A stretch of DNA of 64,000 nucleotides, from the IMG/VR virus record IMGVR_UViG_3300037067_026753; one strand, 5' to 3'. The stretch comes from a virus. Shown here one piece after another: positions 34,087 to 34,190 of this stretch (position 1 is its first letter; the number at the start of each line of letters is the position of its first letter). Under the pieces are notes generated by a model. It was not told the DNA's origin, searched no databases, and was given only the letters and a program-made list of their open reading frames with translations. A program made the translations under genes and the position numbers.

Positions 34087-34190
34087 AGATAAATCCCTCA
34101 CTCTTCTATTGAGCTACAGACCCTCATGATAGACATTGCATCTACCGTGAGGGTCTGAGCGGATTTGCACCGCCAACAAGGGTTCGTAAA
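34087..34190 (-). tRNA. second, less canonical permuted tRNA-like unit (anticodon UAC or UAU)
   Basis: TTTACGA-ACCCT-TGTT-GGCGG-TGCAAAT-CCGCT-CAGACCC-T | 26-nt linker | GGGTCTG-TA-GCTC-AATAGAA-GAGT-G-AGGGA-TTTATCT; acceptor 7/7 WC; D-loop lacks GG, T-loop TGCAAAT. Confidence 0.35.

Follow-up and report, generated by a model that had tools for sequence, protein, structure and literature searches.

The 64,000-nucleotide (nt) stretch of viral DNA analysed here (IMG/VR record IMGVR_UViG_3300037067_026753; hereafter the window) encodes on its minus strand, from position 34201 to 34066, a structured RNA of ~135 nt that is a transfer RNA (tRNA) turned inside out. The D arm, the T arm, a 7-base-pair (bp) acceptor and a 5-bp anticodon-like stem are all there. 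In the modelled structure, the acceptor is closed by a linker hairpin and the anticodon loop is replaced by an outer helix, formed by pairing of the 5′ and 3′ ends across an internal loop that is asymmetric. The RNA is a member of a large, strongly covarying and apparently unnamed family of phages and some bacteria. This structured RNA family is real and widespread, has the inside-out tRNA topology of the YrlA RNAs, and is genetically coupled to DUF7873 (PF25283), a protein family of unknown function whose gene lies directly upstream in the window. We infer that these RNAs are probably new YrlA-like tRNA mimics that partner DUF7873 and whose role is based on tRNA shape, not on the decoding of codons.

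Architecture of the RNA in the window

The element lies in a gap of ~500 nt without open reading frames (ORFs) (33949-34450), flanked by minus-strand ORFs at 34451-35218 and 33676-33948. A preliminary description of positions 34087-34190 had proposed a permuted tRNA-like architecture and, read from 34190 to 34087 on the minus strand, the sequence runs exactly as given there, with the anticodon-stem 3′ strand followed by the T arm, the acceptor 3′ strand, a 26-nt linker, the acceptor 5′ strand, the D arm and the anticodon-stem 5′ strand. The portion before the linker reads TTTACGA-ACCCT-TGTT-GGCGG-TGCAAAT-CCGCT-CAGACCC-T, the linker is CACGGTAGATGCAATGTCTATCATGA, and the portion after it reads GGGTCTG-TA-GCTC-AATAGAA-GAGT-G-AGGGA-TTTATCT. 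Both the predicted fold and the covariation among homologues agree with this order. The functional unit is larger than 34087-34190, because the two ends of the RNA also pair as an outer helix.

The acceptor strands CAGACCC and GGGTCTG form 7/7 Watson-Crick pairs, and a further 3 bp (TCA/TGA) complete the 10-bp inverted repeat that had been described. The T stem GGCGG/CCGCT has its 5/5 pairs provided that one G-U is counted, and the two loop anomalies that had been pointed out, a D loop without GG and a T loop with G at position 55, are both seen. The minimum-free-energy structure computed by RNAfold for 34200 to 34070 is a four-way junction with an 8-bp outer helix, AUUGCUUU (34195-34188) pairing with AAAGCAAU (34083-34076). 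Below the anticodon-like stem of 5 bp lies an asymmetric internal loop (~5 nt versus 11 nt), followed by this helix of 7-8 bp. The fold has an energy of -46 kcal/mol and a z-score of -3.65, and none of 200 shuffled sequences folded equally well.

The window holds two such units in tandem on the minus strand. The second unit of the same design, which had also been reported, is found ~100 nt upstream at 34285-34400 (unit 1; the element described above is unit 2). Unit 1 has a canonical T loop (UUCAAAU), a D loop containing GG and a closed acceptor of 8 bp, followed by C-CCU. ARAGORN found no tRNA and no transfer-messenger RNA (tmRNA) in the window, Rfam gave no match in the window at gathering thresholds, and a megablast search of the locus against GenBank phages returned no match.

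A covarying RNA family downstream of DUF7873

Homologues of both units were aligned from two other contigs, each related locus carrying an L number here. L001 is a syntenic IMG/VR contig whose DUF7873 protein is 79% identical to that of the window and in which the whole RNA gap is kept at 81% nucleotide identity. L003 is more distant (DUF7873 59% identical); it has both units, other downstream genes and no major-vault-protein homologue. In these three-sequence alignments, 9/37 pairs of unit 2 and 12/28 pairs of unit 1 show compensatory changes. The three unit-2 sequences were used to train a covariance model (R1), which was then run on loci chosen solely for encoding a DUF7873 relative (75 viral, 31 metagenomic and 3 from cultured phages), and full-length matches on the same strand were found shortly downstream of DUF7873 in most of the fetched loci. 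A second-generation model (R3) was built from 44 of these matches.

In the 44-sequence alignment, 91.7% of cells are paired (57% when shuffled), compensatory changes occur in 36/37 pairs and the covariation score is 0.749. With 90 sequences, 89.4% of cells are paired (54% when shuffled), all 37 pairs have compensatory changes, and the score is 0.763 versus at most 0.135 for slid controls. Both alignments were fitted to a model and lean towards the proposed structure, yet the structure is secure, because the slid controls score low and many pair types occur. All seven pairs of the outer helix (helix 1) have compensatory changes, with 81-83% of cells paired across the two alignments, and all five pairs of the anticodon-stem-like helix (helix 2) covary in both. 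The T-arm helix is 99% paired across the family and the seven pairs of the acceptor proper form in nearly all sequences; helix 4, comprising the acceptor and a 2-bp extension, is 90-96% paired with every pair covarying, as do all seven pairs of the linker hairpin (helix 5). The element is thus far beyond chance, as the preliminary description had supposed, both in its comparison with the shuffled sequences and in the preservation of its helices by compensatory changes in homologues.

Nearly all members of the family have a T loop of the form TTCRANT and a D loop of the form AGYGGTA; the window, L001 and a further relative, L115, do not. Since unit 2 of L003 has canonical loops (TTCAAAT and AGCGGTA), the G55 and the GG-less D loop of the window are a derived trait of its small clade, to which L001 and L115 also belong. 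The earlier suggestion of a degenerate copy or decoy is therefore borne out as far as degeneracy goes; the decoy belongs to the role that we favour below. N-CCA directly follows the 7-bp acceptor in 53 of the 90 members (chance expectation 1 in 64), and the commonest discriminator is U (39/90). The linker after the acceptor has a median length of 26 nt (range 7-163) and often forms a hairpin, and the strand beyond the anticodon-like stem has a conserved U (84%), A (75%), U (70%) and A (85%).

One reading of the window's units is that they are the decaying, functionless remnants of a tandem tRNA duplication. Such an event is expected to leave short direct repeats like TTTA at the junction of unit 2 and CTG at that of unit 1, and the loops of unit 2 are indeed degenerate, but the upkeep of every pair in the 90-sequence alignment and the retention of the place beside DUF7873 in very distant loci make this reading scarcely credible. 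Tandem tRNAs can also produce false matches, an artefact about which Chen et al. caution (PMC4201824). Here no model match that overlaps a tandem pair of ARAGORN tRNAs scores above 39 bits, which excludes the artefact, and no match of at least 40 bits overlaps an ARAGORN tRNA save for one dubious "tRNA-Stop" call in the Klebsiella phage locus L146. The DNA pattern GRGGGTCTRTAGCTCA was discarded as a probe for the family; it returned mostly ordinary tRNA arrays, such as that of L090.

The coupling to DUF7873 is close. Among the 93 loci with at least 300 nt of sequence downstream of DUF7873, 89 have an R3 match on the same strand within 1 kb downstream, at a median distance of 142 nt, and 18 loci have two or more; DUF7873 identity among the RNA-linked loci goes down to ~31%. 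The RNA lies nearly always no more than ~150 nt downstream of the DUF7873 gene. Phages of widely differing size carry the pair, among them the cultured Ralstonia RSL1, Rhizobium RHph_TM30 and Klebsiella FBKp24, and the DUF7873 gene often lies within phage tRNA arrays. In cellular loci, on chromosomes of Cytophagales, Saprospiraceae and Chitinophagales, DUF7873 sits among housekeeping genes and the RNA is found downstream in 16 of 37. The RNA is present and unannotated in RSL1 and RHph_TM30. In FBKp24 (vB_KpM_FBKp24, NC_061421; L146), the deposited "tRNA-Sup-TTA" at 5013-5097, which is also the ARAGORN tRNA-Stop, overlaps the 3′ half of a permuted unit at 5041-5183 and is probably a mis-call; the second unit of this phage, at ~4850-4955, resembles a class-II tRNA and has an encoded ACCA.

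A search on both sides of the DUF7873-RNA pair gave no third conserved gene; the neighbours are heterogeneous. A few neighbours recur, though rarely: Ro60 (TROVE and vWA domains) is encoded directly upstream in L052 and L128, while L011, L012 and L016 have a CCA-adding enzyme. In two phage contigs, tmRNA genes lie within ~3 kb downstream of the pair (L003, 6624-6762; L029, 6285-6673).

The position of the RNA, on the same strand and directly downstream of DUF7873, would also suit an element acting in cis from the 3′ untranslated region, a tRNA-like punctuation mark that brings RNase P to the DUF7873 mRNA, so that this is cut or stabilised, and has no function in trans. tRNA-like structures are known RNase P processing signals. 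An outer helix, an encoded CCA and the full set of nucleotides for D/T tertiary contacts are not obviously needed by a processing signal, however; the depositors of FBKp24 annotate a promoter between DUF7873 and the RNAs, and the window's clade keeps two diverged tandem units. We regard a purely cis-acting element as quite improbable.

Relation to YrlA, permuted tRNA genes and tmRNA

A permissive Rfam scan of 33700-34600 gave one notable match, to YrlA (RF02553, "Y RNA-like"), over the full model at 34194..34074 on the minus strand, with 27.5 bits and E=0.0014, below the gathering score of 69. When ten related loci were compared with Rfam, nine had YrlA matches of 31-43 bits, all likewise below 69, and L125 had none; no family reached its gathering score in these loci. 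YrlA, a bacterial Y RNA that mimics tRNA, is nevertheless the closest known family: nothing in Rfam matches the window or nine of the ten loci better, and the match is full length in all but one locus. The order of parts in the Rfam consensus is an end-formed helix, a second helix, a short stem, the T arm, an acceptor-like hairpin and the D arm. In the published topology, the T arm, acceptor-like stem-loop and D arm follow one another and Ro60 binds in the stem formed by the ends, at the motif GNCGAAN0-1G (PMC4201824). The element in the window has the same topology in its fold, its consensus structure and its covariation, and it shares the tRNA-like nucleotides of the T and D loops. The "permuted tRNA" layout is therefore a known design, because YrlA has the same topology. 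The YrlA of Mycobacterium smegmatis, whose acceptor measures 7 bp, is a substrate of RNase P and has CCA added to it (PMC4201824).

The differences from YrlA lie in the scores given above and in the part that binds Ro60. In the cmscan alignment of the window to YrlA, a 7-bp helix of the model is deleted; judging by the published topology, we take this helix to be the one that binds Ro60. One of the 90 members has the complete motif GNCGAAN0-1G, and CGAA is seen in 9 of them versus 6.7 in shuffled sequences, so there is no enrichment. The neighbouring gene is DUF7873 and not rsr, and the acceptor of the family has all 7 bp and in most cases an additional hairpin as its cap. A scan of 50 window ORFs, among them all those of at least 290 amino acids, revealed no TROVE domain, and among ~43 upstream ORFs scanned in related loci, TROVE with vWA_Ro60 was found only in L052 and L128. 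By its score, its lack of the motif and the lack of an adjacent rsr among the window ORFs scanned, the element falls outside YrlA.

It could still be that the RNA is a bona fide YrlA Y RNA bound by an Rsr/Ro60 protein encoded elsewhere in the ~424-kb genome or by the host, with DUF7873 as an accessory. YrlA being the best Rfam match, the Ro60 genes directly upstream of DUF7873 in L052 and L128, and the heptamer UUACGAA, which resembles the CGAA part of the Ro60 motif (PMC4201824; PMC12135203), speak for this. Against it stand the low score, the deleted helix, the rarity of the motif (CGAA is not found in the closest relatives L001, L115 and L003) and the TROVE-free set of scanned window ORFs. 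In addition, phages of Rhizobium, Klebsiella, Serratia and Ralstonia have DUF7873, yet lie outside the ten named groups of a Ro60 tblastn search (nine smaller groups were unitemised). We consider a Ro60-bound YrlA an unlikely explanation, and Ro60 is not the general partner of the family. The heptamer lies just 5′ of the tRNA-like core in both units (~34184-34190 and ~34397-34403, minus strand) and is not kept in the closest relatives. A weaker RNA-model match (38-41 bits) is also found upstream of the Ro60 gene in L052 (456-569) and L128 (90-208), and these may be genuine YrlA RNAs beside the DUF7873-linked RNA.

The preliminary description had gone further and proposed a permuted tRNA gene with the anticodon UAC or UAU, to be checked by scoring the reassembled halves. 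Permuted tRNA genes are known from the red alga Cyanidioschyzon merolae, some green algae and archaea, and split tRNAs from Nanoarchaeum. The element has the layout of the C. merolae type, with the 3′ half before the 5′ half, complementary acceptor strands joined by a linker, and an end helix beyond the anticodon stem. The rejoined halves are called as tRNAs by ARAGORN for all eight junction choices in each unit, as Val-UAC or Ile-UAU in unit 2 and as Ile-GAU or Asn-GUU in unit 1. Such an outcome is expected of tRNA-like arms under any of the models, which the test therefore cannot tell apart. What separates the element from the C. merolae type is the splice motif and the anticodon: the paired ends form a covarying outer helix and hold no arrangement of a 3-nt bulge, a 4-bp helix and a 3-nt bulge (the bulge-helix-bulge of archaea and eukaryotes), and neither the anticodon nor the purine at position 37 is conserved. 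In the same register of the 5′ flank, the loop triplets are UAC, AAU, UAU and AAA in the window and its three close relatives (L001, L115 and L003), the anticodon-equivalent triplets are diverse family-wide, and only 42 of 85 members have a purine at the equivalent of position 37. The proposed anticodon thus does not hold, and the element is not counted among permuted tRNA genes.

A genuine permuted tRNA gene would be one in which RNase P and CCA maturation open the acceptor, while cutting of the 5′ and 3′ ends inside the internal loop and their ligation, by DUF7873, a host ligase such as RtcB or both, yield a decoding tRNA; the permuted tRNAs of C. merolae follow this maturation route. Besides the behaviour of the rejoined halves, its attractions are the canonical acceptor, D and T features with N-CCA in over half of the members (53/90), the loci within phage tRNA arrays, the U at the position-33 equivalent (84%) and the A at the position-35 equivalent (75%) of the 3′ flank, and an outer helix that could keep the ends together for cutting, as in split and permuted pre-tRNAs. 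Its difficulties are as many. We know of no splicing endonuclease of the bulge-helix-bulge type in bacteria or their phages, and the internal loop is asymmetric; the candidate anticodon is unstable among close relatives and diverse in the family, and the purine at position 37 is present in only 42/85. By the identity rules of bacterial tRNAs, the frequent discriminator U73 (39/90) and the variable loops of 3-4 nt poorly suit NAG/NAA (Leu) or NAU (Ile) identities. We think a spliced, decoding tRNA improbable. It is a little less probable that these are the first true permuted tRNA genes of bacteria and phages in a broader sense, with DUF7873, as an RNA endonuclease or ligase cofactor of a new kind, removing the outer helix after RNase P and CCA processing and closing an anticodon loop from the two ends, or with the RNA left unjoined and aminoacylated as a CCA-ended molecule in two pieces. 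If either were the case, the phage would have a tRNA that is invisible to host anticodon nucleases until it is assembled.

Two-piece tmRNA made from permuted ssrA genes likewise has a processed tRNA-like domain that lacks an anticodon loop. The gene order of permuted ssrA (T arm, acceptor 3′ strand, CCA, intervening segment, acceptor 5′ strand) is shared by the DUF7873-linked RNA, including the encoded CCA, and weak Rfam matches to cyano_tmRNA and beta_tmRNA fall over the junction. These facts would fit a small permuted molecule of the tmRNA type, made of two pieces, that becomes charged and goes into stalled ribosomes, but ARAGORN finds no tmRNA and the Rfam tmRNA models score 10-25 bits versus cut-offs of 70-84. 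The acceptor pair 3:70 is G-C, not the G-U that is recognised by alanyl-tRNA synthetase, there are no pseudoknots, and there is no mRNA-like tag with a conserved frame, an indel between the window and L001 shifting the sole candidate frame. With these failures of detection, tag frame and G3-U70, the element is not a tmRNA by membership, and a tmRNA-like function is very unlikely.

The Band-7-associated tRNA-like RNA (b7a-tRNA) predicted by Burroughs and Aravind in 2016 is, as described in bioRxiv 10.1101/312249, also a predicted tRNA-like non-coding RNA linked to a protein cofactor in neighbourhoods of the RNA-repair type. A Band_7 gene lies just upstream of DUF7873 in L003, and L119 has an orthologue of 82% identity at the same place. 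In the window, a protein with an MVP_shoulder domain, a domain that is SPFH/Band-7-like, is encoded 1 kb downstream, a Band_7 protein is encoded at a distance (Table 1), and no RtcB was seen. Band-7 and RtcB are not conserved neighbours of the DUF7873-linked family; the two families might overlap.

Proposed role and genomic surroundings

In the role that we favour for the YrlA-like mimic, the RNA would fold into a tRNA-like L shape and assemble with DUF7873 as a ribonucleoprotein. In members that encode N-CCA, RNase P and 3′ trimming would open the acceptor; in unit 2 of the window, opening might proceed via the CCA-adding enzyme encoded at 50820-52136. If M. smegmatis YrlA is a guide, maturation by RNase P and CCA probably opens the acceptor in many members, and since an encoded CCA is widespread, the predicted product is a tRNA look-alike in two pieces with a CCA end. 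The particle would then interact with proteins able to recognise the shape of tRNA, most likely as a non-cleavable competitor or decoy for host nucleases that target tRNA, or as a platform for tRNA repair, quality control or surveillance, and it would take no part in codon decoding. Hughes et al. (2020) proposed a role as competitive inhibitor of an anticodon nuclease for YrlA's tRNA-like domain (PMC7790460).

Several observations weigh against this proposal. Four of the 93 loci carry DUF7873 without a detectable adjacent RNA, as do 21 of the 37 cellular loci. DUF7873 has no informative structural or sequence relative, and we infer that it binds RNA solely from the adjacency of the two genes. 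The U-N-A conserved in the 3′ flank at the equivalents of positions 33-35 is left unexplained by a pure decoy model. Finally, no CCA is encoded in unit 2 of the window and its elbow is degenerate (G55, no G19), so that this unit may behave unlike typical members.

The mimic design itself was already known from YrlA; what seems to be new is the different and uncharacterised protein partner. We found no paper naming DUF7873 or PF25283, and a candidate cognate RNA is the first functional lead for this protein family. YrlA-type mimicry is, on this reading, not bound to Ro60, and at least one other protein would be paired with such a mimic, often in phage tRNA islands, which are thought to be an arena of phage-host conflict over tRNA cleavage and repair. 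An unannotated RNA family with strong covariation support thus sits in cultured phages and in some Bacteroidota chromosomes.

Table 1. Coordinates of the RNA elements and of selected genes in the window, with the basis for each.
Feature	Position	Strand	Basis
DUF7873 (PF25283) gene, directly upstream of the RNA	34451..35218	-	Pfam, E=7.6e-67
Unit 1, paralogous permuted tRNA-like RNA	34285..34400	-	model R2 126.8 bits (window in training), R3 34 bits
Spacer between the units: TTGCATACCA ... TTGAAAGTCCCAG ... GAAGGTGGTT	34202..34284	-	11-locus alignment
Unit 2, complete ~135-nt permuted tRNA-like RNA	34066..34201	-	R1 145 bits and R3 109.7 bits (window sequence in the training set of both), Rfam YrlA 27.5 bits, fold z -3.65
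Outer helix, 5′ strand AUUGCUUU, partner 34076-34083	34188..34195	-	minimum-free-energy fold, family covariation
Anticodon-stem-like helix, strand preceding the T arm (CCCUU), partner 34095-34099 (GAGGG)	34178..34182	-	fold, consensus, covariation
T arm GGCGG-UGCAAAU-CCGCU, atypical G at position 55	34158..34174	-	fold, consensus structure
Acceptor 3′ strand CAGACCC, then U, then CAC: no encoded CCA	34151..34157	-	sequence
Discriminator-equivalent U and 26-nt linker: 3-bp acceptor extension, capping hairpin GGUAGAU...GUCUAUC	34124..34150	-	fold, consensus
Acceptor 5′ strand GGGUCUG	34117..34123	-	sequence, fold
D arm GCUC-AAUAGAA-GAGU, degenerate D loop without G18G19	34100..34114	-	fold, consensus
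Outer helix, 3′ strand AAAGCAAU	34076..34083	-	fold, family covariation
3′ trailer: small covarying hairpin GGACCUGAAAUCC at 34030-34042; conserved terminator-like hairpin at 33981-34010	33981..34042	-	alignments
Intrinsic-terminator-like hairpin, then T run	33933..33962	-	sequence
ORF of 90 amino acids	33676-33948	-	ORF
R2K ATP-grasp	32921-33679	-	Pfam
Protein of 874 amino acids, Vault_3 and MVP_shoulder domains	30293-32917	-	Pfam
HPr	30023-30292	-	Pfam
Macro domain, weak match	29259-29744	-	Pfam
DUF1848	28108-28824	-	Pfam
Band_7 protein	47377-48537		Pfam
CCA-adding enzyme	50820-52136		window ORF scan

The window further encodes a NAD-dependent ligase, a topoisomerase and an Hcp-like protein and has the look of a segment from a very large phage. 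A protein identical to the window's DUF7873 (P0001) is found at NCBI on a 424-kb contig labelled as a "Candidatus Nanoarchaeia archaeon" metagenome-assembled genome; this bin assignment is doubtful, because the gene content of the window resembles that of a very large phage.

The 874-residue protein is a homologue of the eukaryotic major vault protein in a phage-like genome, and its gene stands in a block with those of an R2K ATP-grasp ligase, HPr, a weakly DarG-like Macro domain and DUF1848. The genes for the vault protein homologue, R2K and HPr recur in the same order in L001, and the block has no general link to the RNA family. Used as a query, the vault protein homologue retrieved no viral loci. 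The idea of a vault RNA was dropped, since the RNAs of L003 have neither the vault protein homologue nor R2K downstream and the neighbours are heterogeneous.

The spacer between the two units (34202-34284, minus strand) has motifs that are kept in 11 loci, namely TTGCATACCA, TTGAA(A/T)GTCCCA and GAAGGTGGTT, and it may serve as an internal promoter or a processing site, or may itself be a third RNA element. In the 3′ trailer, the loop of the terminator-like hairpin, GCAGGGUAGU, is the same in the window and L001. The hairpin with the T run, at 33933-33962, probably ends the RNA operon.

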